IMG/VR virus record: IMGVR_UViG_3300040816_000784
DNA: 20,000 nucleotides
Direction: 5' to 3' (one strand)
Source of the DNA: an uncultured virus (IMG/VR IMGVR_UViG_3300040816_000784)
Taxonomy: Duplodnaviria > Heunggongvirae > Uroviricota > Caudoviricetes
Below are positions 24 through 18,544 of the stretch, piece after piece; the first letter of the stretch is position 1; each line of letters starts with the position of its first letter. Below the pieces are notes generated by a model. The model was not told the origin of the DNA and made no database searches. It worked only from the letters and a program-made list of their open reading frames with translations. The position numbers were made by a program, and so were the translations under genes.

Positions 24-764
24 TTATATTATAACTCCTAACTTTGCTTTTGTCAACAATTCTTTTTCGCTTTTATACTCTCCAACTAAGTAATCGCCAG
101 CCATAACATCACTTAGAGATAAATGGCCTTCATTTGTAGTACCGTCTTCTAATATAGCACCAGCATGTTGGTTAGTAATTTTAAGTGTACCATTAAGTAT
201 GTCCTCACTAGGAACAAGATACATGTTTACTTGATCTCTACAAACTAGCACACAAAGAATATAATCAAACTCTTTTGCTTTTGTTTGTTGAAAACTGCCA
301 TTACCACTTTGCGAAATATCTGCAAATGATAATGCACGTTCTTCAAGTAGGCTAGGAATAGCCTGATACTTCTTGCCTTTATTTTTAGGCTTACCACTGG
401 CCGCCCTTATAACTTTGATTTCTACTTTAAGCATATCATTGCCTTTCTCAAGTAGTCTATCAAAGTTAGTAGCCTTACAGTTGTTTGCTTTGTAAAACTC
501 CTCGTAGATAACTTTGGTTTGTTTGGTCTTAGTCAAGATATCAATAAACTTATCTTCAACTATTTCTTCAACAGTTTCACCAATACCTGTACCGTAATTA
601 GCATACAAGTTGTAAAAAGGAAAGTCTGCTGTTTTTATAGACTCGATAACTTTGTCTAGCAGTTGAGGACTATGTTTAAGTGCCTCAAAGAAGTCTAGTG
701 TATCACCAGCAGTATCCTCAGACCTTTCAAAACCAATTGCTTCTAAAACATGTTTATCTAACAT
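24..764 (-). CDS. PD-(D/E)xK restriction-endonuclease-like nuclease
   Basis: FD-x10-VEIK spacing (NFDRLLEKGNDMLKVEIKV) resembles the PD..(D/E)xK active site; followed by FQQTK..EFDYILCVLV as in type II REase-like proteins; TAATG-coupled to the upstream gene. Confidence 0.55.
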   Translation of the reverse strand: MLDKHVLEAIGFERSEDTAGDTLDFFEALKHSPQLLDKVIESIKTADFPFYNLYANYGTGIGETVEEIVEDKFIDILTKTKQTKVIYEEFYKANNCKATNFDRLLEKGNDMLKVEIKVIRAASGKPKNKGKKYQAIPSLLEERALSFADISQSGNGSFQQTKAKEFDYILCVLVCRDQVNMYLVPSEDILNGTLKITNQHAGAILEDGTTNEGHLSLSDVMAGDYLVGEYKSEKELLTKAKLGVII

Positions 765-1126
765 TATTTGACCACCGTTCTTAAAACTTCAACTATTACT
801 TTACCGTATTTGGCAAACCACCCTTGATCTTCTGCCATTGCTAGTTCAGGCATCAGCATAAGTGCTGTTTCTGTGCCTAAGAATGCATTACCAATTAGTA
901 AAAAGCCTGCACTTGATACTAGTAGGTACATGTGATCGTTATCTCTGAAACTGTGAATTATAATCAACAAGGTTCCAAAAATCATTGATAGGTATGCAAA
1001 TATTTCCATGTCAGGATTGCTTTTACCTAGTGCAACGGTCATTCCAATAAACAAACTGGAACAACCGATTATCTTCAAAGTGGTTTGAACAACACTATGA
1101 ATTTTTTGCTTTTGCTTCTTAGTCAT
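764..1126 (-). CDS. Small multi-pass membrane protein, unknown function
   Basis: About 3 hydrophobic segments; AAGGA SD upstream. Confidence 0.7.
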   Translation of the reverse strand: MTKKQKQKIHSVVQTTLKIIGCSSLFIGMTVALGKSNPDMEIFAYLSMIFGTLLIIIHSFRDNDHMYLLVSSAGFLLIGNAFLGTETALMLMPELAMAEDQGWFAKYGKVIVEVLRTVVK

Positions 1127-1132
1127 TATTCC

Positions 1133-1648
1133 TTATTGGATAATGCCGTTAGACAGTTCGTATTGGATAGCAATACTGTTAAACAAGTTATAGTACTCGT
1201 CATCACTGTTTGGTCTGTGTTCTGAACCATAAAGGTCAGCATCAACAAAGTTCCAATTCACTGAACCGTCTTTGTTAGTGTTTTCGTCTGAACTGACTGC
1301 TCTGTTAAATGCTCTAGCAAACTCGCTATCAAAAGTAACACCAGGTCTGTAAGCGGCACCTTTACCAAAGAAACCCATTTTTTCTAATGCATGACCAACT
1401 GAGTTGAGTGAAAACTTACCACTGTCTCCATCAGCATCACCTAAAGTGATTTGCATTGGATCATCAATAATATAGAACTTGTCTTCACCAAGTTCACCAA
1501 AGTTCTTAGACACATAGTCTTCTACAAACTTTTTACCCTTTTCAAATGCTTCAGCATCATTAGTTCTGTATTGCATATCGTACATTTCCATACCTTTCTG
1601 CAACATTGTTGGCTCTTGTTGTTCGCCTAAAATTCTAACATTTAACAT
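1133..1648 (-). CDS. Phage early hypothetical protein
   Basis: 171 aa ORF with TAGGAG SD and its own sigma70-type promoter. Confidence 0.7.
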   Translation of the reverse strand: MLNVRILGEQQEPTMLQKGMEMYDMQYRTNDAEAFEKGKKFVEDYVSKNFGELGEDKFYIIDDPMQITLGDADGDSGKFSLNSVGHALEKMGFFGKGAAYRPGVTFDSEFARAFNRAVSSDENTNKDGSVNWNFVDADLYGSEHRPNSDDEYYNLFNSIAIQYELSNGIIQ

Positions 1649-1683
1649 AAAAAACTCCTACTGTTTTATTAAATTATGTATAT

Positions 1684-1719
1684 ATTATAGCAAAAAAGGC
1701 CGAACGAGTCAACCTTTTT
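1684..1719 (-). promoter_or_regulatory. Sigma70-type early promoter
   Basis: AAAAAGG-TTGACT-N17-TATAAT on the minus strand. Confidence 0.85.
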
Positions 1720-1740
1720 GCCACTTTTTTTGGTATTTTT

Positions 1741-1941
1741 TTACGATTTTTTGCTATTAAGTAGTCTCAAATCACCCATTGTATAGGCTACAAACAATAA
1801 TATGGGTGTGAAAGCCAATGCAATTTGAGTGTTTTTAGACACATCTAGCATACTGATTAGGTAGTTATATCCATACACTACTGCAAACATAGTGAACAAA
1901 ATACCCAGTCCAATTGAGGTTTTTTTGATAATATCTAACAT
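1741..1941 (-). CDS. Small two-TM membrane protein
   Basis: 66 aa, two hydrophobic helices, CAGGAG SD, own promoter. Confidence 0.7.
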   Translation of the reverse strand: MLDIIKKTSIGLGILFTMFAVVYGYNYLISMLDVSKNTQIALAFTPILLFVAYTMGDLRLLNSKKS

Positions 1942-1976
1942 AAATTTACTCCTGTTATGTGTTTAATTACTCTATT

Positions 1977-2012
1977 ATAGTACTACATCTAGTATGTAAG
2001 GTCAACCTTTTT
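1977..2012 (-). promoter_or_regulatory. Sigma70-type early promoter
   Basis: AAAAAGG-TTGACC-N17-TACTAT. Confidence 0.75.
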
Positions 2013-2026
2013 CACAATATATAGTC

Positions 2027-2054
2027 AAAAAAATACCCTCCGAAGAGGGTATTT
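2027..2054 (-). terminator. Rho-independent terminator with C(UUCG)G tetraloop
   Basis: Minus strand AAATACCCTC-TTCG-GAGGGTATTT-TTTT downstream of the porin-like gene; UUCG loops are typical of T4-like phage terminators. Confidence 0.9.
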
Positions 2055-2077
2055 AAACTCATAATCGGGGTGTCGAT

Positions 2078-2686
2078 TTAGAATTTGTATGAGTAGCCAA
2101 CATAAAAGTTGTCAACGTCTTGTACCTTATCTAAAAGGTCTTCGTCGTTGTTATCGTGATCGATAAAACCAACTTTTACTGAACCACCCGCTAAGTCAAA
2201 AGACTTAGATACTTCAATGTAAGAACCTGCATTGTCCCAGTCGCCATAGGCAACGTCAACAACTTTTAATGCACTTGTTTCTACTAAGTAGAAATCACCT
2301 GCATCGTCAAGTCCTTTAGCATAGTATACGCCAAATAGATCAAAGTTTGCTGAAACGCCCACTTCTTCCCATCCGTCAATGTCAATACCTTGGTAGCCAC
2401 GGTCAACGTATGCAACGTTTAAATCAACGCCACCTAAGTCAAAACCATAACCAACCATAGTAGTTGTCATTAAATCTGAAGTTTCATTCAAAGACATAAC
2501 TTTTGCACCAGCAAAGATACCATTATCAAGACTTACTAAGCCTTGTGCTGAATATCCAATACCGTCACTCATAGTTACACCTCTGAAGATATTATCAGAT
2601 GCGATACCAACTTTACCACTAATATCAGCGGCAAATGTTGGAGTCGATAGCATAATTGCTACCATAAATGTGAATATACCTTTCAT
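2078..2686 (-). CDS. Outer-membrane beta-barrel protein, TorF/TIGR02001-like putative porin
   Basis: Sec signal peptide (ending ..TFA-A), N-terminal ISG.VGIASDNIFRGVTMSDG motif, alternating beta strands, C-terminal YVGYSYKF beta-signal, strong AGGAGG SD. Confidence 0.8.
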   Translation of the reverse strand: MKGIFTFMVAIMLSTPTFAADISGKVGIASDNIFRGVTMSDGIGYSAQGLVSLDNGIFAGAKVMSLNETSDLMTTTMVGYGFDLGGVDLNVAYVDRGYQGIDIDGWEEVGVSANFDLFGVYYAKGLDDAGDFYLVETSALKVVDVAYGDWDNAGSYIEVSKSFDLAGGSVKVGFIDHDNNDEDLLDKVQDVDNFYVGYSYKF

Positions 2687-2762
2687 ATATTCCTCCTTTC
2701 TTATATACGTTACTGAATTTTAAAGACGACTAAGGCCGGCCTTTTGCGACAGTAACTATTCT

Positions 2763-2799
2763 ATTTTACTAAAAATTGACTCTAAGGTCAACCTTTTTT
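2763..2799 (-). promoter_or_regulatory. Sigma70-type early promoter for the porin-like gene
   Basis: AAAAAAGG-TTGACC-N17-TAAAAT. Confidence 0.8.
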
Positions 2800-2839
2800 T
2801 GGGAGTATTTTGAATCTTTTTTTGATATTATAAGACTTT

Positions 2840-2856
2840 TATTTATCAATAGTTTG
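2840..2856. promoter_or_regulatory. IHF-consensus match overlapping a late-promoter-like GATAAATA
   Basis: TATCAA-TAGT-TTG (2844-2856) fits WATCAANNNNTTR; GATAAATA lies on the minus strand at 2840-2847. Confidence 0.4.
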
Positions 2857-2889
2857 TGCGATTTTTATGCAGACTCTTTAGACGATCCA

Positions 2890-2919
2890 AAAAAAAGCAC
2901 CCTTAAGGGTGCTTTTTTT
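2890..2919. terminator. Palindromic (bidirectional) intrinsic terminator
   Basis: Perfect 30-bp palindrome A7-GCACCCTTAAGGGTGC-T7 just after the 2934..3197 gene. Confidence 0.9.
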
Positions 2920-2933
2920 CTAACAGTTAGTTG

Positions 2934-3197
2934 TTACACTAAGCCGTTTGCCATTGCTTTATAACCAGCGGCAATAACAGCTCTCGAAGGTGTACCTAAA
3001 CGGTATACATTTCTGCTTCTGTTTTTAGTGTCGGTCACTGTGTTCAAATAGATAGGATATCCTTTGAATCTTAGTGATTGAATCACTGCTTGTGGGTTAC
3101 CAGCACCGAAAAAACTTCTGATTTGTGCTGAAGATAAAGTTCTGCCTTCTTGTAAAGCGGCTAAAACTTTGCTTTCTTTAGTTGTTGATGTAGTCAT
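2934..3197 (-). CDS. Small winged-helix/HTH DNA-binding protein
   Basis: VLAALQEGRTLSSAQIRSFFG..NPQAVIQSLR..GY.I...YRLG pattern; AGGAGG SD; own promoter and terminator. Confidence 0.7.
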   Translation of the reverse strand: MTTSTTKESKVLAALQEGRTLSSAQIRSFFGAGNPQAVIQSLRFKGYPIYLNTVTDTKNRSRNVYRLGTPSRAVIAAGYKAMANGLV

Positions 3198-3254
3198 ATG
3201 ACCTCCTAATTTTCAACTTTTTGGTTAGAACACCCTTGCTCTAACTTGTATACT

Positions 3255-3289
3255 ATTATACACATTTTATACACAAGGTCAACCTTTTT
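3255..3289 (-). promoter_or_regulatory. Sigma70-type early promoter
   Basis: AAAAAGG-TTGACC-N16-TATAAT. Confidence 0.75.
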
Positions 3290-3308
3290 ATGAATATTCC
3301 TATATCCA

Positions 3309-3740
3309 TCATCCTTTATATCTCTCTGCTAGGTACGTTTGGTGATGTTTCCAAACGCCTTTATCTATAAAACCCCATTCTCTTACATGGGGACCTGGAA
3401 TAAATAGAGTCCAAGTATCAACGCCAGGCTCCAACTCAATGCGGTGTAGGCTACGACTGCCTGCAAAACGACAGGAACCGGGCCTCCGCCATTTTCGTTC
3501 GCCAGTTTTAAGGTGCTCCCAATAGCCACCTTTAAGGATAATAGTGCAATAAGGCCAAGGATGGTCATGTAAATCATCTGGGTCTCCTTTGTGAAAGTTA
3601 TGTAAAAATATGTTGAAAGGGAACCACTTGCGTTCTTTTAAAAACAAGTAGTACCTAGTTAAATATGGTATGTTACTTTGTCTATCTAGTATTACCCTTT
3701 TTCGTCCAAGAGCATCTAAAAACTTTAGAAAAAGTGTCAT
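3309..3740 (-). CDS. Cupin-fold metal-binding protein
   Basis: LHDHPW...ILKGGY.E...HRIEL..WTLF..GP..REWGF; His-rich cupin motif common in phage proteins. Confidence 0.7.
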   Translation of the reverse strand: MTLFLKFLDALGRKRVILDRQSNIPYLTRYYLFLKERKWFPFNIFLHNFHKGDPDDLHDHPWPYCTIILKGGYWEHLKTGERKWRRPGSCRFAGSRSLHRIELEPGVDTWTLFIPGPHVREWGFIDKGVWKHHQTYLAERYKG

Positions 3741-3752
3741 ACTGTGTAATAC

Positions 3753-4190
3753 CTATTTGTTTGCTTCTGATACACGTTTGCGTAAACTACTACTACTAAA
3801 AGAATGATCTCTTCCATTGTATATAATTTTACTGCCACGTTGCTTGGCAATGTCTTTGCCAGTGAAGTCTTTTGTTTTATACTCGTCACCTAAGATACGA
3901 ACGTCTATTGGTAATGTGAGCAGTAAATCAATTAAATCTTGTTCTGTGTTGTAGATAACAATTTCATCTACATACTTTACTGCCGCTAGTTGTATTTGTC
4001 TTTCGACAATGCTCTGCACTGGTGCATTCTTTTCTGGACGGTCTAATGTAGGGTCGTTTTGTAATCCTACTATTAAAAAGTCACAATGTCGTTTGGCTTC
4101 TTCTAACATTGTAACATGTCCTGCATGTAGCAAATCAAATGTGCTACATGTAAATCCTATTTTACCGCAATCTTTATAATGTAGTCTCAT
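3753..4190 (-). CDS. Cytidylyltransferase, glycerol-3-phosphate cytidylyltransferase (TagD)-like
   Basis: TFDLLHAGH (HxGH), LIVGLQ.DP, YVDE, GDEY, R.H.FSSS.LR. Confidence 0.85.
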   Translation of the reverse strand: MRLHYKDCGKIGFTCSTFDLLHAGHVTMLEEAKRHCDFLIVGLQNDPTLDRPEKNAPVQSIVERQIQLAAVKYVDEIVIYNTEQDLIDLLLTLPIDVRILGDEYKTKDFTGKDIAKQRGSKIIYNGRDHSFSSSSLRKRVSEANK

Positions 4191-4368
4191 CTCTTATAAC
4201 CGGTCGTTTACAGTAATCTAATTTACCTGCCTGTGTTTCATGTGGTATAAAATCAGCATTCTTTATAACTCGCCTAAGTTCTTTATCTAACTTTCTACCA
4301 TCGTTTAGTAGTTCATTACTGTAAGGTAATTCTACAGTAATAGTTGCTCTAATTATTTTATCTGCCAT
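4174..4368 (-). CDS. Hypothetical protein
   Basis: TAATG-coupled within the operon. Confidence 0.6.
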   Translation of the reverse strand: MADKIIRATITVELPYSNELLNDGRKLDKELRRVIKNADFIPHETQAGKLDYCKRPVIRDETTL

Positions 4369-4808
4369 TATGAATAATCTTGTAACATTTTCCTTATTTC
4401 TAATGCGTGTTGTTCTTCCATGCCAATTTGCCCTCTTGCATATTCTTCAAGCATAATACTTGCATCAGCAACTTCCATTAGTAGTTCTTTGTATGTCTCT
4501 ACTGCTTTCATTTCGTGTTCTAAACTCTCAGTGAGAATTTGTTCAACACTATGATTGTGATTTTCTTCAATAGCAGATATATTTTGACTTGGGTGTCCAC
4601 CAAAGCCTGTGATGTACTCACCTGCTTGTAAGGCATGTGCTAAACTTTCGTTTGCCTGTTCCTGTAAAAATGTCACAATAGGAATCCTATTGGGTCCAGT
4701 AACCATCAGTGAACTGTGAGCATATCTAACTACTCCAGCCATTTCTAATTCCACAATTCTGTTAAGTATATCGCATACTTTGGATGTGTTTAATTCTTTC
4801 AATTCCAT
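4368..4808 (-). CDS. Ferritin-like (bacterioferritin-related) protein
   Basis: Four-helix pattern LNRIVELE...Y...ESLAHA...LEHE...Y...EEQH; the canonical Bfr heme Met appears to be Leu. Confidence 0.85.
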   Translation of the reverse strand: MELKELNTSKVCDILNRIVELEMAGVVRYAHSSLMVTGPNRIPIVTFLQEQANESLAHALQAGEYITGFGGHPSQNISAIEENHNHSVEQILTESLEHEMKAVETYKELLMEVADASIMLEEYARGQIGMEEQHALEIRKMLQDYS

Positions 4809-4814
4809 ATGTCC

Positions 4815-5264
4815 TTATTTTCCTGGTAAGCCTGCTTCTATAAACTTACCGATTGTTTCCATATCTTGGTCACTGAGCATTCCTGCCTGTGCCCACATAG
4901 TGCTACTCATAGCACCTACTTGTCCTCTGTTCTTGTAAGTGTTAAGTCTACCTACAATATAGTCTGAACTCTGTCCTGCTAGTTTAGGGAATGGTCCCAT
5001 ACCTTCACCTGCTTGTCCATGACATGCGGCACAACCTGCCCATAAACTTCTAATACTGCTGAACTCATCTGCGTTAGCAAGTTCTTTTTTACGTTGTTCT
5101 ATTTCAACAACTGTGCCGTTAAGTGCTACATACTCTTCGTAGCATTCTCCTGTACAGGCACCCGAACTGGAAAAACCCGTGTATTCTAAATCTGGGTATA
5201 CTTTAAATCCAAAGAACACCGCTATTGCTAGTGTTCCTAATAATGCCATTCCTAATTCTTTCAT
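4815..5264 (-). CDS. Membrane-anchored class I cytochrome c (c553/c4-like domain)
   Basis: N-terminal TM helix, CAACH heme motif, G.G...P.LAGQ..DYI..L..YK, distal Met region MSSTMW. Confidence 0.9.
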   Translation of the reverse strand: MKELGMALLGTLAIAVFFGFKVYPDLEYTGFSSSGACTGECYEEYVALNGTVVEIEQRKKELANADEFSSIRSLWAGCAACHGQAGEGMGPFPKLAGQSSDYIVGRLNTYKNRGQVGAMSSTMWAQAGMLSDQDMETIGKFIEAGLPGK

Positions 5265-6043
5265 TACTCTCCGTTGTAATACTCAAGACGTTCTATATCG
5301 TCTTCAGTGGTTTCTTCACCATATTGTATTTCTATAATATGACATGGTTGATCACTTTCATTTATTACTTGATGCCAGTCACCTTTTTTAATATGAATAA
5401 CTTCATCAGTCTTTAAAGTAGTCATTATAAAATCGTTTGGATTGTTTGTGTCTAGTCCATGTTTTATATAACACTCACCTTTACTAACAAACCACATTTC
5501 ACTACGTTTAAAGTGTCTTTGGTAACTGATACCTTTACCTGGTTCTATTACCAATTCTTTAACTTTAACTGCTGAGTCTTGAAACAAGTCACTGAACTCG
5601 CCCCACACTCTACGTTCTGTTGGGTACTTCCATTCTTTGAGTATCCAACTACTGCTATTGGCTTTGTTATCGCCACCAACAGCAAATTCAAACTCATAAC
5701 CCTCAACATCCATTTCTGGTATGTTGTCTTTACCTCTGTCGCCGCCATTACAAAATACATATTTGTGTTGATGACCAAATGCATTTCTAACTTGTATGAG
5801 ACCGTGTGTTACACTGCCATCACTGTCATCAACAGCATACACATTGTCTACCATATCCATGCGTTGAATTATAATTGAGCGTTCTTCAAAAGGCATAAAA
5901 GGTCTGCCCTTCTTTCTAGTGAGCCATTCGTCACTGTTTACCAGTACAACAAGTTTGTCACCATATGCTTTTGCACTTTCTAATAGATTTATATGACCAG
6001 AGTGCAGTGGATCGAAACCTCCACTAACAACAACTATTTTCAT
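5264..6043 (-). CDS. Fused cytidylyl/adenylyltransferase + mannose-6-phosphate isomerase type II-like cupin
   Basis: SGGFDPLHSGH, NSD.WL.RKKG.PF, NGGDR, then R.WG...VKELVI.PG..IS.QRH..RSE.W...H...IIEIQYG....EDDIER. Confidence 0.85.
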   Translation of the reverse strand: MKIVVVSGGFDPLHSGHINLLESAKAYGDKLVVLVNSDEWLTRKKGRPFMPFEERSIIIQRMDMVDNVYAVDDSDGSVTHGLIQVRNAFGHQHKYVFCNGGDRGKDNIPEMDVEGYEFEFAVGGDNKANSSSWILKEWKYPTERRVWGEFSDLFQDSAVKVKELVIEPGKGISYQRHFKRSEMWFVSKGECYIKHGLDTNNPNDFIMTTLKTDEVIHIKKGDWHQVINESDQPCHIIEIQYGEETTEDDIERLEYYNGE

Positions 6044-6462
6044 TATGCTACACCGCGTGAGCGAAGCCTTCTTTGTATAGCCTCTTTGTATTGAGCATGT
6101 TTACGTTTCTTACGTTTACACTTCATCCACTTAGTACCAGTTGACTGATACATGTGAAAGTCTCCACGTTGCTCTGCATCTCTAACGTATTTGCTCCAAC
6201 GTTTTTTTGCTTGGTCCTTCATACGTTTACGTTTAACTGAAGGCTTTTCGTAATATTGCTGTTTAGCAATTTCTTTTTGGAAATCAGATTTTTCTAATCT
6301 CTTCTTGAGAATTCTAATGGCTTTATTTACATCACCATTTCGAACTTCAATACTGGCATCAAATTCTTTTTCTTTAGGTTTAGTTTTATCGAACTTTTTC
6401 TTAAAGTCTCTATTGTAACCCTTAGTAATTTGCTTACCTTGTTGTTTAAAATTTGTACTCAA
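6043..6462 (-). CDS. rpsU: Ribosomal protein bS21 with basic N- and C-terminal extensions
   Basis: Core IEVRNGDVNKAIRILKKRLEK....KE....QYYEKPSVKRKR; TTG start 3 nt after the clpX stop; 139 aa versus about 55-75 aa for typical bS21. Confidence 0.85.
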   Translation of the reverse strand: MSTNFKQQGKQITKGYNRDFKKKFDKTKPKEKEFDASIEVRNGDVNKAIRILKKRLEKSDFQKEIAKQQYYEKPSVKRKRMKDQAKKRWSKYVRDAEQRGDFHMYQSTGTKWMKCKRKKRKHAQYKEAIQRRLRSRGVA

Positions 6463-6465
6463 TGT

Positions 6466-7716
6466 TTACCTCATTTGTTTAAGTTTATAGTTTGTGTCTA
6501 CTTCACTAATACCAGTATTATACGATAAAACTGGATAAGAGTCAAGATCTTTTGGATATTTATTAAAACTTATTTTATCTACACCACTTTGTTTAAGTTT
6601 TGGTGCCCTAAACATAATGTTATGTAAACTAGATTCTATAATGCTTTTCAACCCTCTAGCACCTACTTTTCTATCAATAGCCAATTGTGCTACATCCTTT
6701 AAGTATTGCTTTGAGAAGTCTACATCTATATCATCAAATTCTAATAATTTTTGCATTTGTTTAAGTACACTACCTTTTGAGTTTTCTAATACTTCTACCA
6801 TTTGATCTTCAGTTAAACCTCTGAGATGTATTAAGTTTGGTAGTCTACCTACAAATTCTGGAATCAAACCAAATTCAATTAAGTCTCTATGTTCTACATA
6901 TTCTAACCATGAATCTGATTGGAATTTTTCGCCAATTGCTTTATTAAATCCTATTGACGTTTTGTTTAGTCTCTTTTTAACAACTTGGTCCAAACCAACA
7001 AATGAACCACTTACTACAAATAATACATTTTTTGTATTAAATTCTATAAATTCATCCATGCGTTTAGAACCATTAGTTGAAACTTTTATTGTAGTGCCTT
7101 CAACAAGTCTTAGTAATGCTTGTTGTACACCTTCTCCACTAATATCTTTTGTACTGGTATTTGATTCACTGCTTCTAGTCTTTTTATCAATCTCATCAAT
7201 AAAGACAATGCCTCTTTCTGCTAATTCTACATTCCAATCGCAAGTATTAAGTAACCTTTCTATAACACTTTCTACATCTTCACCTACATAACCTGCTTCA
7301 GTAAGTGTGGTTGCATCTGCTATAGCAAATGGTACACTTAGTTTCTTAGCAAGTGTTTGTGCTAATAATGTTTTACCTGAACCAGTAGGGCCTACCACAA
7401 CACAATTACTTTTTTCTATTTCATTTTGTGTGTCAAATATAATTCTTTTGTAATGATTGTAGGCACTGACACTTAAGACTTCTTTTGCATAGTCTTGGCC
7501 AATAACATAGTCATCTAAAAATTCTTTTATTTCTTGGGGTTCTGGTATGTTTTCCAAGTCGAGTTCATCAACTTCTACATCATTTATGATCTTATAACTG
7601 ATATTGATACACTCGTTACAAATGTAACTAGTTGGTCCTGCTATAAGTTTTTTTACTTCGTTTCGCTTTTTACCACAAAAACTACATTCAAGATTATTAT
7701 CTTTTTTGTCAGACAT
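6466..7716 (-). CDS. clpX: ATP-dependent Clp protease ATPase subunit ClpX
   Basis: CSFCGK..ICNEC Zn finger, GPTGSGKT, GYVGEDVE pore loop, IDEIDK, GEGVQQALL, IGF loop, PEFVGRLP, GARGL. Confidence 0.97.
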   Translation of the reverse strand: MSDKKDNNLECSFCGKKRNEVKKLIAGPTSYICNECINISYKIINDVEVDELDLENIPEPQEIKEFLDDYVIGQDYAKEVLSVSAYNHYKRIIFDTQNEIEKSNCVVVGPTGSGKTLLAQTLAKKLSVPFAIADATTLTEAGYVGEDVESVIERLLNTCDWNVELAERGIVFIDEIDKKTRSSESNTSTKDISGEGVQQALLRLVEGTTIKVSTNGSKRMDEFIEFNTKNVLFVVSGSFVGLDQVVKKRLNKTSIGFNKAIGEKFQSDSWLEYVEHRDLIEFGLIPEFVGRLPNLIHLRGLTEDQMVEVLENSKGSVLKQMQKLLEFDDIDVDFSKQYLKDVAQLAIDRKVGARGLKSIIESSLHNIMFRAPKLKQSGVDKISFNKYPKDLDSYPVLSYNTGISEVDTNYKLKQMR

Positions 7717-11343: not shown

Positions 11344-11370
11344 AAAATATTTTCCGTTTTGTAATAGGAG

Positions 11371-11925: not shown

Positions 11926-11933
11926 TATTTATC
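11926..11933 (-). promoter_or_regulatory. Late promoter GATAAATA
   Basis: Intergenic, upstream of the nuclease gene. Confidence 0.65.
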
Positions 11934-11938
11934 GAATA

Positions 11939-12493
11939 TTAGTCGTTTCTTACTAGGAACGTATGGTTATAAATTTGTGCAGAAACTGGGTATGCTGTAC
12001 CCCAACTTGGACTACTAATATTATGATTATAATAATGTGTAGCACCACTGGTTGGATCTATAGTAATACCTTTTATAGATAGTAATGCAACTTGTACACT
12101 TTGTTTCCAGGCTTCCATATTTGGACCAATAGGTTTGAACTGCCGTTGTCCATGTAGATACACAATCTGTATATCATCTGCTTTGCCATCACAATACCAA
12201 CTGAATTGGCATCTACCAATCACAGGAACTTGAGTACCATTCCATTTAGTTCTCATTTCTGCTTGATGTACAACATCACAAATGTTGTTAGGATACTTAG
12301 GGTGTTTTACTCTGTTAAGTGTAACATGAGCCACAGCACTTTTACCTGCTAATGTTTCCCCTTTTGCTTCATGGTAGACATTTTGTGCTAGGCATAAGAC
12401 CTGCTCTGCATCAATGTCTACATTGTTTAAGTTATACGGAGCATAATTTATCATCATGCTTAGTAATACGGTTTTAATTGTAGTAATTTCCAT
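11939..12493 (-). CDS. Cell wall hydrolase, SleB/Hydrolase_2 family
   Basis: CLAQNVYHEAKGE, AVAHVTLNRV, YPNNICDVV.Q, CQFSWYCDG, DPTSGATHYY, NHTF. Confidence 0.92.
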   Translation of the reverse strand: MEITTIKTVLLSMMINYAPYNLNNVDIDAEQVLCLAQNVYHEAKGETLAGKSAVAHVTLNRVKHPKYPNNICDVVHQAEMRTKWNGTQVPVIGRCQFSWYCDGKADDIQIVYLHGQRQFKPIGPNMEAWKQSVQVALLSIKGITIDPTSGATHYYNHNISSPSWGTAYPVSAQIYNHTFLVRND

Positions 12494-12515
12494 ATTGCAC
12501 CTTCCTTATGTATAT

Positions 12516-12544
12516 ATTATACTAAAAAATGTGTTCTATGTCAA
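12516..12544 (-). promoter_or_regulatory. Consensus sigma70 promoter
   Basis: TTGACA-N17-TATAAT upstream of the SleB-like gene. Confidence 0.85.
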
Positions 12545-12555
12545 GTGTTTTATAT

Positions 12556-13311
12556 TTAGTAAATTTGGTAACCTTGGGTAGAAAATATATTAAAATTTTC
12601 CTTACACCAATCATTCATTTCGCCTACATTTTTTAATCTTAGCATTTTAAGATGTGCTGTAAGTATATCTTCTCTTCGAATATTTACTTTTTGTATTTTG
12701 TTTGCATAGTCATAATGTTCTAAAATAGTAGGGTGTAATTCTGGTGCACCTCTATGCGTGTAAAGTGGTTGTTTTCTGCTACCCCATTGACCTTTTATGC
12801 TAACAAGACTTTCCATCATAGTAGGGTAATCAAATTTTATAATTTCTGACACATATTGCAAATGATCTAATTGTTGTTGATTTAAATTTTGATATTCAGC
12901 AAACGTTGTATCAAAAATATCATGGATTGCTGTGAACCAATAACACAATTCATTTGCTTCTAGGTATTCCTTTAAGAAGATAATATCATTTAAACTTTGC
13001 ATCAGCATCCAGTCTCGAGGAACACCTGGATTTGAGTATTGAGAACCTTGGCATACCCAAGTAGTTTCTCCGTTATTGGTACCAACTTTATCATGTCTAA
13101 ATAAGGAAGGTAACATGATAATAATTTTGTCTAGTTCAGTAAAATTATATTTGCGATTTGCATTAGCAACTTTATGTAGTATCTGAGTTATTCCGCCGCC
13201 TTTTTGTCCAAAGTTATAACCATCATTTTTATAACAAATCATATCTGCCCAAGTAGGCCAATGCCATTCGGTAAAACTACAACCAAAAGTAAAAATTCTA
13301 CTATTACTCAT
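12556..13311 (-). CDS. SGNH/GDSL-like hydrolase-fold protein
   Basis: Start moved to ATG 13311, overlapping the ferredoxin stop; [22 protein letters not shown]. Confidence 0.65.
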
Positions 13312-13663
13312 CGGTAATATCTTTAAATGGGATTCTTGATACTTTTTCAAATGCTTCGTTGGTATCATAGTTGATATCTTCGTGTCCGGGCATAGGATCT
13401 TTCACTTTGGTAATAACAGGCCATTTTTCTTCTTGACTCATTTTTTTATTAAATTCTAGCCAATGATGATCTTCAGGCTTTAGTTTTCTATCACTCACAA
13501 TAGCATCAACTGGGCACTCTGGTTCACAAATTGCACAATCAATACATATATCAGGATCAATGACTAATGTGTTTTCTCCTTCAAAAAAACAATCAACAGG
13601 GCAAACTTTAACACATGCGGTGTGTTTACAATCTACACATTCACCTTTTACAACATAAGTCAT
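13304..13663 (-). CDS. fdxA: Ferredoxin FdxA (dicluster Fe-S, Azotobacter FdI-type)
   Basis: MTYVV...C.DCKHT.CV.VCPVDCF.EG...[22 protein letters not shown]...WP.IT; AAGGAG SD. Confidence 0.93.
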
Positions 13664-13742
13664 TTAATCTCCTTTGCGACCTATTATTTACTCAAAATAA
13701 ACCATTTCACTTCGTTTTTTAAGTAAACGATTAAATATTAGT

Positions 13743-13836
13743 AACTGATTGGCAATGAACCAGTTGACAAAAAATGTTTTTCGCCCCTCATTAAGATGCG
13801 ATATATAGTAAAGGAACTCGGCGTTCCCCAATCAGT
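13743..13836 (-). ncRNA. Candidate structured intergenic RNA element
   Basis: 9-bp closing inverted repeat ACTGATTGG/CCAATCAGT enclosing two hairpins; no family recognised. Confidence 0.4.
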
Positions 13837-13845
13837 ACAACACTA

Positions 13846-14898
13846 TTAAACTCCGGAGTTTACAGTTTGTTGGAATAAATTGTAGAGTTGTTCACTGGCT
13901 AAGTTCTTAGCCTTTGCTTCACATTGAATATCGAATTGATCTATAAAACTAAGTGCCCATAGGTTAGCATCCTTGTTAGGATAATAATCTGAATGTGCTC
14001 TTAGTTTTTGTTTCTTGTGACCTTCTTCAAGTAGTCCCACGATATCATGCAAACCAATGTGGGTATTGTCACCAGCAGGTAAATGCTCGTCACGACTGTA
14101 ACTATAATGCATAGCAGGGCGAACTCCACGCCAACTGTCGATAACTGCTTTAACTCTGTCATCCTCGGGTTGTATGTACTCTTCATCTCTAATCCAGTGA
14201 TGATGTATATCTAATACAAGTGCCACGTGGTCTTTCAATTTAAGACTTTCGTCAAGACCCCAACACATCTCATCATTCTCAATAGTTATTGTATTTAGTG
14301 CTTCAGGTGATAATCGAGGCAAAGCCTTAATTATACCTTCTGCACCTTGTCGTCCACTAATGTGTACGTTTATTTTCATGTCTTGCCACTGCTGACCATA
14401 ACCCATCCAACGTGCCATGTTTACATGATACTCGAACTCGTCAATGCTACGTTCTACAACGTCTGGCTTATCTGAAGCCAGCACACAAAATTGACCAGGA
14501 TGGAAACTAATACGAACATCACGTGACTTCGCAAGTTCTCCAATCTTGGCAAATCCGGCCTCGAGTACTCTAACGTTAGTTGGATCATCCCATAAGTAAC
14601 GCCAATTAGGCTCAGTAGCCATAGGTATTTGATTACTTCCAAGTCTCACCATCCTTCTATTTTCAGGCAAAGTACTTACCCATTCAACAAGGTTGTATGC
14701 ACTTTGCATATTATGTGTAACAACATCAAGTAACTTTTGTTCAGCAACAGACTTTTCTTGTCTGTTACACCAAGCGACAGTTGTGCCTTTTTCTGTAAAG
14801 TTTTGTTGAATCTCTTTAAGAATCTTTGGCTTCTGACTTTGATCAGGGTCCATGTACTTGCAACAAAAACCTATACGTTGTATACTATTATCAAACAT
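13846..14898 (-). CDS. uvsE: UV DNA damage endonuclease UvsE/UvdE
   Basis: RIGFCCK, RISFHPGQF.VLAS, INVHISG, ITIENDE, VLDIHHHW, MHYS, AHSD, EAKAK; start moved to ATG 14898. Confidence 0.95.
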   Translation of the reverse strand: MFDNSIQRIGFCCKYMDPDQSQKPKILKEIQQNFTEKGTTVAWCNRQEKSVAEQKLLDVVTHNMQSAYNLVEWVSTLPENRRMVRLGSNQIPMATEPNWRYLWDDPTNVRVLEAGFAKIGELAKSRDVRISFHPGQFCVLASDKPDVVERSIDEFEYHVNMARWMGYGQQWQDMKINVHISGRQGAEGIIKALPRLSPEALNTITIENDEMCWGLDESLKLKDHVALVLDIHHHWIRDEEYIQPEDDRVKAVIDSWRGVRPAMHYSYSRDEHLPAGDNTHIGLHDIVGLLEEGHKKQKLRAHSDYYPNKDANLWALSFIDQFDIQCEAKAKNLASEQLYNLFQQTVNSGV

Positions 14899-14904
14899 GT
14901 CAGT

Positions 14905-14939
14905 ATTATATACTATTGATACAGCAATGTCAATAAATA
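14905..14939. promoter_or_regulatory. Overlapping divergent promoters: sigma70 (minus) and late-type (plus)
   Basis: Minus TTGACA(14928-33)-N17-TATAAT(14905-10)-6 nt-ATG; plus AATAAATA(14932-39)-5 nt-ATG 14945. Confidence 0.75.
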
Positions 14940-14944
14940 ATTGC

Positions 14945-15643
14945 ATGAATTTAGAAAAAGTTGATGGTATTATTGCTTGTGGGGATAGTTATACATTAGG
15001 TCCTAGATACGGTGATGATATACATCATGAGGATAGTTGGCCTAGCATTTTAGGTAAATCACTATCTAAGCCTGTTTCGAACGTTTCTAGAGGTGGTGCA
15101 AGTAATACTGAGATTTCATTACAACCACTAAAAACTTTATCTAGTTTTAAAAGTCCATTATTGATATTTGGATTTACTGTAGATATACGTTATCCGTTTT
15201 TCACTAGAGATGGCATTTTGCATAGTATGAATGGTTTAAGTGATGCAGACTTTGAACGTGAAGATTCTATAAAAAATAATAGAGTATCACTAGCAAAACA
15301 ATTTATGCAACAATTTCTACTTCCTGTAGGTGAACATACCGGAATGCAAAATTTGTTCGTGCAATCTGTAAAAACAGCAATGGCATATAAAAAACTAAAT
15401 CCTAGTGCTCAAGTGATATGGGGAAATATACATAGTCAAAAACCGACCAAACGTATCAAACCAAATAATAGATTAGTATCTGAGAGCATGTATTGTTTTA
15501 ACAGCATTGCAAATAGTAAACCATTACAATCGTTGATACATCATAATACCGATGCATGGATTTCCCCAAAAGATAGTCATCCTAACAAACTAGGTTGTAC
15601 CATAATTGCAGATAGCCTTAAGAGATACATTTCTCAATTTTAG
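14945..15643 (+). CDS. SGNH/GDSL-like hydrolase-fold protein
   Basis: CGDSYT.G, SWP..LG, N.SRGGASN, DSHPNKLG; start moved to ATG 14945. Confidence 0.75.
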   Translation: MNLEKVDGIIACGDSYTLGPRYGDDIHHEDSWPSILGKSLSKPVSNVSRGGASNTEISLQPLKTLSSFKSPLLIFGFTVDIRYPFFTRDGILHSMNGLSDADFEREDSIKNNRVSLAKQFMQQFLLPVGEHTGMQNLFVQSVKTAMAYKKLNPSAQVIWGNIHSQKPTKRIKPNNRLVSESMYCFNSIANSKPLQSLIHHNTDAWISPKDSHPNKLGCTIIADSLKRYISQF

Positions 15644-15650
15644 ATAAATA
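15643..15650 (+). promoter_or_regulatory. Late promoter GATAAATA
   Basis: Upstream of the 15701 gene. Confidence 0.65.
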
Positions 15651-15700
15651 AACATTGTAGATTAGTCTACATAATCGATTATTAGACGGAGTGACCAAAA

Positions 15701-16288
15701 ATGGCAGATATAAATAATTTTGCGTTAAAAGGACTGGGCAATTTAGTACAGTTTGGCAAACGCGGATTAAAAATCCTCACAAACACGACAGATGACTATT
15801 TTAGTTTTACTGACAACGACGGTTCGACTCTAGTTGAAGTACGTGGTGCTAATGCTACGGTGGCAAGTGCATTTTTGACCAAAGGTCAATTTGATGCGGC
15901 GACGTCTCCCATAGCACAATATGTTAGTACCGAAGTTGCGTACGATACAGGAACAACAACTTTGTTTGAGTGTCCTGCTAACTCTTTAATTTATAGTGTT
16001 ACTGTTGATGTACCTAGCCCTTGGGTTAGTGCTAATGACACAACTGCAATAGTAGTTGGTGATAGTGGTGATGCTGATAGATTATTCACAGCCGATGATG
16101 CTGACATGACTGAGACTTATCAGTTCCACAGCAATTATCAGCATATTTATACTGCTAATTCAAACGTTACAGCAACAATTACACAAGGTGGTGCATCTTC
16201 AGGTGTTGCTACTGTGACTTGTTTAGTCGTAACTGAGAACTTATCTGTTAAAGATTATGGTTCTATTGCAGACTTAGGCGGTTTATAA
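15701..16288 (+). CDS. Putative virion structural protein
   Basis: T/A/S/G/D-rich beta-type composition, late motif upstream, GGAG SD, followed by a terminator. Confidence 0.6.
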   Translation: MADINNFALKGLGNLVQFGKRGLKILTNTTDDYFSFTDNDGSTLVEVRGANATVASAFLTKGQFDAATSPIAQYVSTEVAYDTGTTTLFECPANSLIYSVTVDVPSPWVSANDTTAIVVGDSGDADRLFTADDADMTETYQFHSNYQHIYTANSNVTATITQGGASSGVATVTCLVVTENLSVKDYGSIADLGGL

Positions 16289-16312
16289 AAGTAACTAGAG
16301 TTCAAAGATATT

Positions 16313-16342
16313 AAAAGCCCCCAATTTATGGGGGTTTTTTTT
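16313..16342 (+). terminator. Intrinsic terminator
   Basis: AAAAGCCCCCA-ATTTA-TGGGGGTTTTTTTT. Confidence 0.88.
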
Positions 16343-16346
16343 GGCT

Positions 16347-16383
16347 AAAAAAGGTTGACATAACCTCTATATTTTGTTATACT
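16347..16383 (+). promoter_or_regulatory. Sigma70-type early promoter with extended -10
   Basis: AAAAAAGG-TTGACA-N17-TATACT with TGn before the -10. Confidence 0.85.
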
Positions 16384-16417
16384 ATCTAGTTCATATACAA
16401 AATCATAGGAGGTTTTT

Positions 16418-16645
16418 ATGAATAGTATATTAAAAAGTGCTGGTGATTTTATCGCCGGTCTAACAACCATCTTAGTATCATTACTAGGATTAGGTATTAT
16501 TGCACAATTATTGTTCGGTAGTACTGTGGTTATAGGTGATGTTGTTGCAAACATTACTGCGTTAGTTTCATCTTTAGGTGAAAGTGGCTTAGTAGGTTTA
16601 ATTGTAGCCATCATTGTTATTGGATTAGTGTCTAAAGACAAATAA
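16418..16645 (+). CDS. Small Gly-rich hydrophobic membrane protein
   Basis: 75 aa, 2-3 hydrophobic helices, AGGAGG SD, monocistronic. Confidence 0.8.
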   Translation: MNSILKSAGDFIAGLTTILVSLLGLGIIAQLLFGSTVVIGDVVANITALVSSLGESGLVGLIVAIIVIGLVSKDK

Positions 16646-16664
16646 TTTAATAACCAACTGTACG

Positions 16665-16695
16665 AAGGGCCGTTAGAAATAACTGCCCTTTTTTT
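16665..16695 (+). terminator. Intrinsic terminator with GAAA tetraloop
   Basis: AAGGGC-C-GTTA-GAAA-TAAC-T-GCCCTT-TTTTT. Confidence 0.88.
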
Positions 16696-16703
16696 GTGGT
16701 TGT

Positions 16704-16711
16704 GATAAATA
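16704..16711 (+). promoter_or_regulatory. Late promoter GATAAATA
   Basis: Between the terminator and the lysozyme gene. Confidence 0.7.
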
Positions 16712-16744
16712 CAAACATATAGAAATATTTTAAAGGAATCACAA

Positions 16745-17215
16745 ATGTTTTTTAGAAAAGACACAACACTAGATCGCGAAGCGGTCTTTGAACAACTCAA
16801 AATTGATGAAGGAGTAGTACATGAAATCTATCTCGACCACCTCGGGTATCCCACCTTTGGAGTCGGTCACCTTATCCTCGAAAGTGATGAGGAACATGGA
16901 AGGCCAGTTGGAACTCCAATTAGTGAAGAAAGAACACGGGCGTGTTTTGAAAGAGATCTTGACATTGCCATCGGAGAGTGTGAACTATTATACGAAGATG
17001 GGGTCTTTGGAGACTTACCAGACGAAGTTCAGCAGATCTTGGTCAATATGATGTTCAATATGGGTCGTACTAGACTCAGCAAATTCAAAAAAATGCATGC
17101 CGCTATCTTAGATGGTGACTGGAAAACAGCCGCAATAGAAGGTAGAGACAGCAGATGGCACAAACAAGTAACTAATCGTGCTGAAAGATTGATGGAAAGA
17201 TTAGAGAACGTATAA
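16745..17215 (+). CDS. T4-type lysozyme (GH24)
   Basis: E-x8-D-x5-T triad (DEGVVHEIYLDHLGYPT), GVGH, NMMFNMG, SRW..Q..NRA.RL. Confidence 0.93.
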   Translation: MFFRKDTTLDREAVFEQLKIDEGVVHEIYLDHLGYPTFGVGHLILESDEEHGRPVGTPISEERTRACFERDLDIAIGECELLYEDGVFGDLPDEVQQILVNMMFNMGRTRLSKFKKMHAAILDGDWKTAAIEGRDSRWHKQVTNRAERLMERLENV

Positions 17216-17877
17216 TGAAAATAACTGATTTTTTAAATGAGGCAGATCAAGTAAAGGCAAAAGAAAAAAAGCCTAAAAAGATTAAGCCTAATAAAGGTAA
17301 CGAAAGTCCACATCCTATGAGGGGAAGACTTGTTGGGGAAAGTAAGCCTCAAAAACAAAAACCTTATGACCCAAATAAAAATCAGCCTAACCCAGTAGCA
17401 AAGCATTCACGTAATAAAAGTGGTGCTGGTTCTCATAAGTCTGCTAAAGATTATGATAGAAAAAATAAACAATCAGACATTAGATCACAAATGGATGAAG
17501 GTACATACGTTGCCGACAGAATGGAAATCATAGATTACATCTTAAAAGAAATTAAAAAAGAAGCATACAACGATATCGGTATGATAAAACACCTAGCAGA
17601 TATGATAGGTAAGAAAGTTAGTGTAAGATATCACAAACATAAAAAAGAAGGCGGAGTATTGCAATTAGAAATGTATGATGGCAATATACCTTTTAATAAG
17701 TGTCCACAATGTGAAGGTGAGATAGTTCACATTGATGAGGCAGAAGGCAAAAAAGATGCCTGTTACCACAAGGTTAAATCAAGATACAAAGTATGGCCCA
17801 GTGCTTACGCCAGTGGTGCATTAGTACAATGCAGAAAGAAAGGTGCTAAGAATTGGGGAAATAGTAAGAAGAAATAA
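17215..17877 (+). CDS. Modular basic protein, candidate capsid-internal protein
   Basis: N-terminus MKITDFLNE resembles the T4 capsid targeting sequence; C-terminal module DACYHKVKSRYKVWPSAYASGALVQCRK. Confidence 0.6.
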   Translation: MKITDFLNEADQVKAKEKKPKKIKPNKGNESPHPMRGRLVGESKPQKQKPYDPNKNQPNPVAKHSRNKSGAGSHKSAKDYDRKNKQSDIRSQMDEGTYVADRMEIIDYILKEIKKEAYNDIGMIKHLADMIGKKVSVRYHKHKKEGGVLQLEMYDGNIPFNKCPQCEGEIVHIDEAEGKKDACYHKVKSRYKVWPSAYASGALVQCRKKGAKNWGNSKKK

Positions 17878-17878
17878 C

Positions 17879-18544
17879 ATGCTAATCAAAGAAATTATAG
17901 AAGACATAACTACTCTTAATACAGAACCTAAGTTAGGTAAACTTCCACATGAAGAAGTAGAGTCAGTTATTCATCAATGGGTCAATCAAGAAGATCACAT
18001 AGAATTAAGTAATGGCATGCATGTACTCAGTGGTGAGAATCACGGCTATGATGATAATGTAGCACTCATAGTTGATGCTGATTATAAAATATTGGATCAC
18101 GATGATGACATTGTTGAACTAATGCAACAATTCACAGCACAAGAAATAGACCCAAGCATTGTAGAAACAATAGTTGAAAAATGTTGGAAAGGATATCAAA
18201 AGAAAGGCATGAAAACCATGTTCGGAAAACGTGTGCCTAATTGCGTTAAGAATGAAGCAGTAGAAGAAAATTTAAGAGCCTGGTTTGGCAAAGGCAAAAA
18301 AGGCGGAGCCGGTGGTGGCGGTTGGGATAGATACAACACCAAAGGCGAACGTATTGGCAAGTGCGGAGACAGTAAGAAGGGCGAGGGTAAGCCTAAGTGT
18401 TTAAGCAAATCAAAAGCCGCAAGTTTGAGGGCCAAAGGTGGTAAAGACGCCATTGGTGCCGCAGTATCAAAGAAGAGACGTAACGACCCAAATAAGAACA
18501 GAAAGGGTAAGGCCAAAAATGTTTCTAATATCAAAGGGAAGTAA
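17879..18544 (+). CDS. Modular protein, candidate capsid-internal protein
   Basis: Start moved to ATG 17879 (MLIKEIIE); acidic N-terminal domain, then basic Cys-pair modules CWKGY..VPNCV and LRAWF..GW..KCG..KPKC. Confidence 0.6.
   Translation: MLIKEIIEDITTLNTEPKLGKLPHEEVESVIHQWVNQEDHIELSNGMHVLSGENHGYDDNVALIVDADYKILDHDDDIVELMQQFTAQEIDPSIVETIVEKCWKGYQKKGMKTMFGKRVPNCVKNEAVEENLRAWFGKGKKGGAGGGGWDRYNTKGERIGKCGDSKKGEGKPKCLSKSKAASLRAKGGKDAIGAAVSKKRRNDPNKNRKGKAKNVSNIKGK

Follow-up and report, generated by a model that had tools for sequence, protein, structure and literature searches.

The pentanucleotide GCWGC (GCAGC or GCTGC) is recognized by enzymes known as ApeKI and AceI. This word is completely missing from the stretch of DNA analysed here, a window of 20,000 nucleotides from an uncultured virus of the Caudoviricetes (IMG/VR record IMGVR_UViG_3300040816_000784). 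The deficit is far larger than protein-preserving null models allow, is brought about by the choice of synonymous codons, and is found again in long contigs of related phages and throughout most of the clade to which the window belongs, where it has been relaxed independently in lineages that still carry a fading trace of it. The best explanation for this purge is probably the avoidance of a host restriction enzyme of the TseI/ApeKI type, which cuts GCWGC. The purge is a classic anti-restriction footprint and as such a known type of phenomenon; here, it is ancient and clade-wide.

Absence of GCWGC and its codon basis

GCWGC is palindromic and was counted over both strands of the window, in which it has no site at all, in agreement with a manual scan in the initial annotation of this DNA. 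A maximum-order Markov model predicts 15.8 sites, and 200 shuffles that preserve the dinucleotides give 16.75 (standard deviation 3.73), with none of the 200 reaching zero. Base composition alone gives approximately 12.5 sites (arithmetic from the base counts), so that the estimate of about 10 in the initial annotation was slightly low, and the deficit itself stands. The codon-shuffled, protein-preserving comparison that had been proposed there as a check was performed on the 31 called genes, which were also used for the codon counts and from which the doubtful open reading frames (ORFs) 9904-10434 (+) and 16345-16800 (-) were excluded. Shuffling synonymous codons within genes gives 15.9 expected sites (standard deviation 2.4, minimum 7), and resampling codons over the whole window gives 18.5; zero was reached in none of the 2000 runs of either null. 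The related word GCSGC is enriched, with 22 sites compared to 4.75 expected from the shuffles and 9.5 and 6.2 expected from the within-gene and window-wide codon nulls, respectively.

The 20 Ala-Ala pairs in the genes of the window all have GCC (12) or GCG (8) as the first codon and never GCA or GCT, exactly as had been claimed. The accompanying claim that other alanine codons are mostly GCA or GCT holds as well, for 279 of the 327 alanine codons that are not followed by another alanine (85%). If codons were chosen independently, 20 GCS first codons out of 20 would have a probability of (48/327)^20, which by arithmetic is roughly 2e-17. All 18 positions listed earlier are among the 22 GCSGC sites (Table 1), of which those at 5741 and 13195 lie outside Ala-Ala pairs. 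The two other frames that can generate the word, NGC-WGC and G-CWG-C, are both unused in the window genes. Because Ala-Ala is written as GCS-GCN, no CAG or CTG stands between a G and a C, and no NGC-WGC is present, the removal of GCWGC is silent at the protein level. Strong selection has thus acted through synonymous codon choice.

GCWGC is not special in the window and is one among several purged palindromes, a point that is absent from the initial annotation. Relative to the within-gene codon null, AGCT is purged even more strongly than GCWGC (4 sites compared to 46.7 expected), and GCGC (1 compared to 11.0), ATTAAT (0 compared to 9.6) and TACGTA (0 compared to 5.1) are purged as well; the same null gives 53.0 sites for GATC and 91.5 for TGCA, of which 43 and 92 are present, respectively. 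In addition, AGCA is over-represented (224 compared to 146, both strands), which looks like compensation for the lost AGCT.

The purge among related phages

The genome-scale test was run on contigs of relatives and not on the window's own genome, and expected counts for these contigs are from the Markov model. Four of the contigs are strict, with no GCWGC site: G002 (119 kb, 107 expected), G003 (110 kb, 86 expected), G005 (99 kb, 108 expected) and G010 (63.5 kb, 52 expected). Two others are leaky, namely G004 (128 kb, 16 sites compared to 108 expected) and G009 (82 kb, 9 compared to 151), and two are relaxed, namely G006 (92 kb, 102 compared to 156) and G007 (340 kb, 423 compared to 628). A normal GCWGC frequency elsewhere in the genome had been named in the initial annotation as evidence against selection; in the relatives, strict contigs of 63-119 kb have zero. 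Zero sites compared to 416 expected are also found in 517,631 bp pooled from 29 loci, which were selected for having no GCWGC site. The codon mechanism recurs in these phages. In the four strict contigs, none of the 307 Ala-Ala pairs starts with a GCW codon, and GCW makes up 85-91% of the other alanine codons. In G006 and G007, 60% and 72% of the pairs are GCW-first, and 92% and 85% of the other alanine codons are GCW, respectively. The relaxed genomes are still enriched in GCSGC, and this residual excess, together with their sub-expected GCWGC counts, reads as the decaying trace of past selection.

It had also been claimed that host-like genes carry the purge. Within the window, this claim is weak, as its host-like genes (cupin, cytidylyltransferases, ferritin, cytochrome c, S21, ClpX, QueD, SNase, ferredoxin and UvdE) together are expected to contain only approximately 3.3 sites under a protein-preserving null. 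It holds in the relatives, in which 19 cellular-type genes of the strict contigs, including those for Suf proteins, FabF, MetK, NadE and PhoH, have no GCWGC compared to 22.0 expected (protein-preserving null, 500 shuffles, minimum 14).

A 508-amino-acid protein of the window (Table 1) has relatives at 80 IMG/VR loci, with 47-99% identity, and a tree was calculated for 79 homologues (IQ-TREE, LG+G4, quick search), from which the short fragments L005 and L075, both also without GCWGC sites, were dropped. The tree has two clades with an SH-aLRT support of 100. In the clade of the window, GCWGC counts do not exceed 15% of expectation in 51 of the 56 rows, and in the sister clade, the purge is seen in none of the 23 rows. 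The five exceptions (L062, L008 with L009, and L078 with L079) are nested inside the clade of the window. In a tree of nine concatenated genes from the long contigs, G007 stands beside the leaky G009 (support 100/100) and G006 stands elsewhere; the two relaxed contigs were grouped in none of the 200 bootstrap trees. Since most of the clade is purged, the exceptions are nested and G006 and G007 are never joined, the purge is reconstructed from these trees as ancestral to the clade and as relaxed at least three times independently.

The other purged words differ between lineages. G004 purges AGCT (0 sites compared to 260 expected), TCTAGA (0 compared to 26) and TCATGA (1 compared to 30), G005 purges TTTAAA (0 compared to 55) and GTGCAC (0 compared to 16), and G003 purges AGCT (8 compared to 234), GATC (104 compared to 274) and GTTAAC (1 compared to 22). 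The sister-clade contig G008 (145,922 bases, behind L041) purges GATC (0 compared to 567), GGWCC (0 compared to 111) and CCGG (4 compared to 108), and with respect to alanine it is a mirror image of the window: GCSGC is absent, and all 152 Ala-Ala pairs are GCA- or GCT-first. This contig has a C5 DNA methyltransferase gene at 74422-75585.

Similar footprints are present in cultured phages of SAR11. The myophage Mosig EXVC030M (MT647606, 141 kb) is depleted in GATC (19 compared to 381), ACGT (0 compared to 188) and CGCG (0 compared to 45). In the podophage HTVC011P, GCWGC (3 compared to 42), GATC (0 compared to 86), CCAGG (0 compared to 28) and GAATC (1 compared to 47) are depleted, and the podophage HTVC019P is depleted in GCWGC (13 compared to 49), GATC (0 compared to 100), CCAGG (0 compared to 26), GAATC (6 compared to 49) and GCGC (0 compared to 34). 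These podophage footprints are strong, although papers report few restriction-modification (R-M) genes in SAR11.

Proposed host restriction and competing explanations

If a host enzyme is responsible, any newly arisen GCWGC would make the phage DNA vulnerable on entry to an endonuclease that cuts unmethylated GCWGC (an orthodox Type II enzyme with TseI/ApeKI specificity), and purifying selection would keep the word out of the phage genome. The phage would escape by the absence of the target and not by methylating it, since searches for three methyltransferase families in the relatives' contigs gave no match above the cut-off. AGCT, GCGC, ATTAAT and TACGTA would be purged by the same process, with a set of words that varies with the lineage. 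A comparable case is Staphylococcus phage K, a large virulent myophage without GATC sites, for which the host enzyme is Sau3AI. The variation of the purged words between lineages fits a changing or diverse Type II repertoire of hosts better than one phage gene, and the depletion of GCWGC in the unrelated podophages HTVC011P and HTVC019P favours a host agent. From these patterns, we infer the agency of a nuclease, its encoding by the host and the type of enzyme. The initial annotation had proposed strong selection by a GCWGC-targeting nuclease or modification system, from the host or the phage itself. The selection is borne out; a nuclease is the best available candidate for the cause, and the evidence on its origin leans towards the host.

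The family searches gave little on the enzymes themselves. The C5 methyltransferase family matched none of nine clade-II records and the D12 family none of five contigs, and the N4/N6 family gave one match only, which is sub-threshold (17.6 bits compared to a cut-off of 26.7). It lies in the relaxed G007, in a 405-amino-acid ORF that ends in the first half of the N4/N6 DNA methylase domain, with a DUF6552 ORF coming next; the 405-amino-acid ORF could represent either a divergent methyltransferase or a remnant. A protective methyltransferase among the seven clusters that are common to G006 and G007 and absent from the site-poor contigs was considered and rejected, as the only match in the eight ORFs scanned was phosphomannomutase-like. 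Restriction-endonuclease families were found neither in the 33 window ORFs nor among 141 representative ORFs (out of 258) from the site-poor contigs, the part covered by the Pfam scan. With respect to the host, a ClpX-based search of genome contigs gave a single match, to Balneola, and the TonB-receptor-like phage gene, taken as a host hint, matched mainly viral clusters in a protein atlas.

According to a survey, orthodox Type II sites are completely or almost completely lost from roughly one in ten phage genomes, for the most part those of non-temperate phages (Rusinov et al. 2018, PMC6286503). Four features expected of restriction avoidance are present here: the word is a Type II palindrome, its loss goes beyond the codon null, the removal is synonymous with an excess of GCSGC, and the loss is genome-wide in relatives. 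As in the cases of that survey, a short palindrome is fully eliminated by synonymous changes and several sites are affected per genome (PMC6286503); the present case adds a deep uncultured clade, relaxations, a mirror sister clade and a flank rule, which is described below. In the accessible part of the survey, GCWGC appears only in the list of Type IIM sites (PMC6286503). A second comparison is offered by pelagiphages, in which GANTC is depleted clade-wise in about half of 33 genomes and the presumed host group is almost without R-M genes, a puzzle raised in the same study (Seong et al. 2022, PMC9516812). The phages described here likewise are marine and have lost a short palindrome clade-wise. 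They differ in that GANTC is at expectation in the clade of the window (1080 compared to 1111 in the 29 pooled loci) and in that the study concerned podophages, whereas the clade of the window consists of giant T4-like phages; the term GCWGC does not occur in the main text of the version consulted (PMC9516812). No account of marine phages avoiding GCWGC came up in a search of the literature.

TseI is described as a GCWGC-specific enzyme (PMC6329791), and M.AbaBS3I (PMC6329791) and M.BatI (PMC8936443) are GCWGC methyltransferases. Such methyltransferases have been reported from prophages and from aquatic bacteria, namely Chloroflexi of freshwater and marine origin (PMC6329791, PMC8936443). GCWGC methylation has been seen in Chloroflexi (PMC6329791), and single-molecule real-time (SMRT) methylomes of SAR11 bins are described with only GANTC/GAWTC (PMC8919816). 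The likeness to TseI/ApeKI lies in the recognition word only. No such enzyme was found in the phage or could be linked to it, and no counterpart methyltransferase was found.

Several points weigh against host restriction as the cause. A GCWGC restriction enzyme or its cognate methyltransferase was not found in the phage contigs scanned. If the hosts are SAR11-like, very few R-M systems are reported there (PMC7029224, PMC9516812); a 2026 survey reports defence systems in a third of cultured SAR11 strains, which is more than in earlier reports, and in single cells too (PMC13712998). A purge of such great age and stability across the clade also contrasts with R-M systems, which usually differ from one strain to the next. 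GCWGC is depleted in only two of the four cultured SAR11 phages examined, which may have other hosts than the phage of the window: HTVC010P has 57 sites compared to 66 expected and is not depleted, and Mosig has 126 sites, the word being outside its list of under-represented words. Finally, sites with a G at position -1 are exempt across many purged words, which is not predicted by ordinary enzyme behaviour and points to a phage-side factor.

This exemption concerns the survivors of purged words, which in nearly all cases are directly preceded by a G (on the 5' side) on one strand or both. In the window, this is the case for all four AGCT sites and the single GCGC site. It is also the case for all surviving AGCT sites in G003 (8), G005 (46) and G010 (52), for all 82 GCGC survivors in the 29 pooled loci and for 103 of the 104 GATC survivors in G003, of which 64 are Asp-Pro written GAT-CCN. 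The GCWGC sites of the leaky lineages follow the same rule (16/16 in G004 and 9/9 in G009), with G on both sides in 19 of the 25, and all 19 GATC sites of Mosig are GGATCC. Where the same words are unpurged (G006, G007 and G008), only 24-34% of the sites have such a G. The base that precedes the flanking G is rarely G. The rule fails for CGCG and CTGCAG and, within the clade of the window, for GGATCC, and it is absent from the podophages, in which none of the 16 residual GCWGC sites follows it.

T4-like marine phages, including Mosig, may carry a protection that makes 5'-G-flanked sites harmless, so that only the other copies are deleted; this is a tentative reading, and a doubtful one. If true, 5'-G protection would be a new mechanism, as no DpdA, QueC, PAPS-reductase or above-cut-off methyltransferase marker was found. 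A more specific form of the idea, in which GCWGC was purged as a restriction target that the phage cannot shield by DNA modification (a modified guanine at G-purine steps), is unlikely. In this form, markable words survive and the rest are deleted, which makes it a variant of host restriction with a phage factor choosing the purged words. The near-universal 5' G of the survivors, set against the 24-34% in unpurged contigs, and the GGATCC sites of Mosig are in its favour, and the absence of the rule from the podophages suggests a factor that the T4-like lineage carries. QueD in the window and GTP cyclohydrolase I (FolE) in G002 are also consistent with it. A 7-deazaguanine system consists of DpdA with QueC, QueD, QueE and FolE. 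Here, QueD and FolE are found, whereas five contigs gave no match to the TGT/DpdA family; the completeness of one of these is rated at 91%, and that of the site-free contigs is only 27-37%. The QueC matches are sub-threshold, with the one in G003 falling in a gene assigned by Pfam to NAD synthase. PAPS-reductase (DndC/SspD-type) matches are likewise absent from five contigs, including one that is 91% complete. In addition, a G inside the site with an equal dinucleotide context is unprotected: AGATC is purged and GGATC is kept, and the G of AGCT follows an A. The pattern is therefore not that of a simple base mark set by sequence context. The strict lineages also tolerate no GCWGC at all, whether G-flanked or not.

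In a second bold reading, a phage-borne GCWGC nuclease may maintain the site-free state: the phage's own endonuclease would shred the host DNA for nucleotides, with the phage immune through the absence of sites. The depth and stability of the purge and its near all-or-none distribution across the clade are as expected for a vertically inherited gene, and non-specific nucleases are indeed encoded by the window (SNase and UvdE) and by relatives (S1/P1 nuclease). A candidate is a gene with a ParB-like domain, present in the site-poor G003, G004, G005, G009 and G010 (Table 1) and missing at the syntenic place in G006 and G007, the domain of which has matches in PHROG families annotated as ParB-like partition protein and as nuclease. 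This gene has an invariant NGHHR motif and variable fusions (one to a Cu/Zn superoxide dismutase domain) and adjoins a gene for a 2144-amino-acid protein; a basic C-terminal tail is common to three members. The domain falls short of Pfam significance, and a profile search of solved structures gave matches dominated by the fused Cu/Zn superoxide dismutase domain of one member. As the gene is one of 10 clusters with the same distribution among approximately 97 widespread clusters, it is a lead only. A phage nuclease is quite improbable overall: the scan for restriction-endonuclease families was negative for the 33 window ORFs and the 141 relatives' ORFs covered (out of 258), several words are purged per lineage and would need several phage nucleases, and the unrelated podophages are GCWGC-depleted too.

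Mutation bias is a still weaker candidate. Cytosine methyltransferases of both the C5 and the N4 kind are known to act on GCWGC (PMC8936443, PMC6329791), and methylated sites could decay by deamination, as CpG does in vertebrates, without any selection. This predicts GCWAC or GTWGC as products, whereas GCAAC is under-represented (31 compared to 44 expected), and deamination cannot yield the observed replacements GCC and GCG. The substitution pattern in the window leads to its rejection as highly improbable. The lack of a C5 methyltransferase match in the nine clade-II records is in line with this, and zero sites over more than 500 kb with the proteins unchanged requires selection. Chance and artefacts of sequencing or assembly, for which no supporting point was found, are negligible as explanations, since none of the 2000 protein-preserving and 200 dinucleotide shuffles reached zero and GCWGC is equally absent from dozens of contigs of different sample numbers, with reading frames intact and codons compensating.

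Under host restriction, the purge of GCWGC is a heritable barcode of past hosts and predicts a long-lived GCWGC-cutting enzyme in the hosts of an abundant clade of giant ocean phages. It sharpens the puzzle already in print for GANTC: streamlined ocean bacteria are said to lack R-M systems, and the restriction footprints in their phages rank among the strongest. There are two possibilities: wild populations commonly restrict DNA and metagenome bins fail to show it, or a different agent is acting. The analysis extends what was known of such footprints by protein-preserving statistics, by their placement in long contigs and in a phylogeny, by independent relaxations in which a trace is still fading and by the mirror sister clade; it also contributes a test that does not support the modified-guanine idea, and the G-flank rule in a cultured phage. 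The exemption at position -1 in Mosig offers an experimental handle on a possible DNA protection.

Identity and gene content of the phage

Family scans of the 33 window ORFs gave a phage-like gene content rich in auxiliary genes, namely those for ClpX, ribosomal protein S21, QueD/PTPS, UvdE, a 7Fe ferredoxin, cytochrome c, ferritin/Dps, a cupin, two cytidylyltransferases, SNase, a cell-wall hydrolase and a lysozyme. Pfam matches on the relatives include a T4-type large terminase, gp32, a RecA/UvsX-like protein, a DnaB-like protein, a clamp loader and PhoH. The window is from an uncultured marine T4-like phage. Of the cultured phages, Pelagibacter phage Mosig has the best match to the 508-amino-acid protein (45.6% identity, with 42% of the protein covered); the next matches are from jumbo phages of Xanthomonas, Ralstonia, Stenotrophomonas and Salicola. 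At the junction of the gene for this protein, the 81 bases at 8370-8450 contain no stretch of nine A that could serve as a slip site. CheckV rates the completeness of relatives' contigs of 92-128 kb at 25-37% and that of the 339,794-base contig G007 at 91%; by division from these values, the genome size in the clade of the window appears to be approximately 350 kb. Pelagimyophages share S21, a core gene there, with the window, whereas their genomes are about 140 kb, and they are close to HTVC008M or Mosig; the window has only the distant match to Mosig mentioned above.

Table 1. Features of the window and of related contigs (positions are those of the window unless a contig is named)
Feature	Position	Strand	Gene or context
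GCWGC-free region	1..20000	both	covers minus-strand genes 24-14946, plus-strand genes 14852-19893 and intergenic DNA
Ala-Ala GCG-GCC	400..404	-	gene 24-764
Ala-Ala GCC-GCT	1353..1357	-	gene 1133-1648
Ala-Ala GCC-GCT	2628..2632	-	gene 2078-2686
Ala-Ala GCC-GCT	2968..2972	-	gene 2934-3197
Surviving AGCT	2979..2982		context AGCTC, GAGCT on the other strand
Ala-Ala GCC-GCT	3157..3161	-	gene 2934-3197
Ala-Ala GCG-GCA	3982..3986	-	cytidylyltransferase-like gene 3753-4190
Ala-Ala GCC-GCA	5026..5030	-	cytochrome c-like gene 4815-5264, missing from nearest relative
Sole GCGC of the window	7892..7895		context GCGCC, GGCGC on the other strand
Surviving AGCT	8385..8388		context GAGCT
Surviving AGCT	8564..8567		context GAGCTC, G flank on both strands
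Ala-Ala-Ala GCC-GCG-GCT, two overlapping GCSGC	8588..8595	-	gene 8398-9924 (508-amino-acid protein)
Ala-Ala GCC-GCA	8615..8619	-	gene 8398-9924
Ala-Ala GCG-GCC	8810..8814	-	gene 8398-9924
Surviving AGCT	8891..8894		context AGCTC
Ala-Ala-Ala GCG-GCG-GCT, two overlapping GCSGC	9770..9777	-	gene 8398-9924
Ala-Ala GCG-GCT	9815..9819	-	gene 8398-9924
QueD/PTPS-like gene	10534..11016	-	bears on the modified-guanine idea, unsupported by other evidence
Ala-Ala GCC-GCA	11490..11494	-	SNase-like gene 11414-11887
Ala-Ala GCG-GCG	15896..15900	+	gene 15701-16288
Ala-Ala GCC-GCT	17099..17103	+	lysozyme-like gene 16745-17215
Ala-Ala GCC-GCA	17129..17133	+	gene 16745-17215
Ala-Ala GCC-GCA	18416..18420	+	gene 17843-18544
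Ala-Ala GCC-GCA	18458..18462	+	gene 17843-18544
ParB-like candidate gene	G005 62279-63433		
ParB-like candidate gene	G004 98667-99671		
ParB-like candidate gene	G009 80860-82029		
ParB-like candidate gene	G003 5811-7337		
ParB-like candidate gene	G010 3219-5201		
405-amino-acid ORF, sub-threshold N4/N6 match	G007 78,975-80,192 (L150 1534-2751)	-	

Cellular-type genes are unusually numerous in the relatives (G002, G003, G005 and others). These encode SufB, SufC, SufD and SufS with NifU, a TonB-dependent receptor-like protein, FabF, SAM synthetase, GMP reductase, NAD synthase, deoxyhypusine synthase, arginase, a GH6 glycoside hydrolase and DnaJ, and several B12-binding radical SAM enzymes are encoded as well.

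The nearest record to the window is a 24,278-base IMG/VR contig that is 96-98% identical to it. This contig is without window positions 4809-5258, which comprise essentially the whole cytochrome c-like gene, and without 18173-18501, which are 329 bases inside the repeat-like gene 17843-18544; both differences are recent gains or losses. The cytochrome c-like gene, missing in the nearest contig, already has its sole Ala-Ala pair in the GCC-GCA form.

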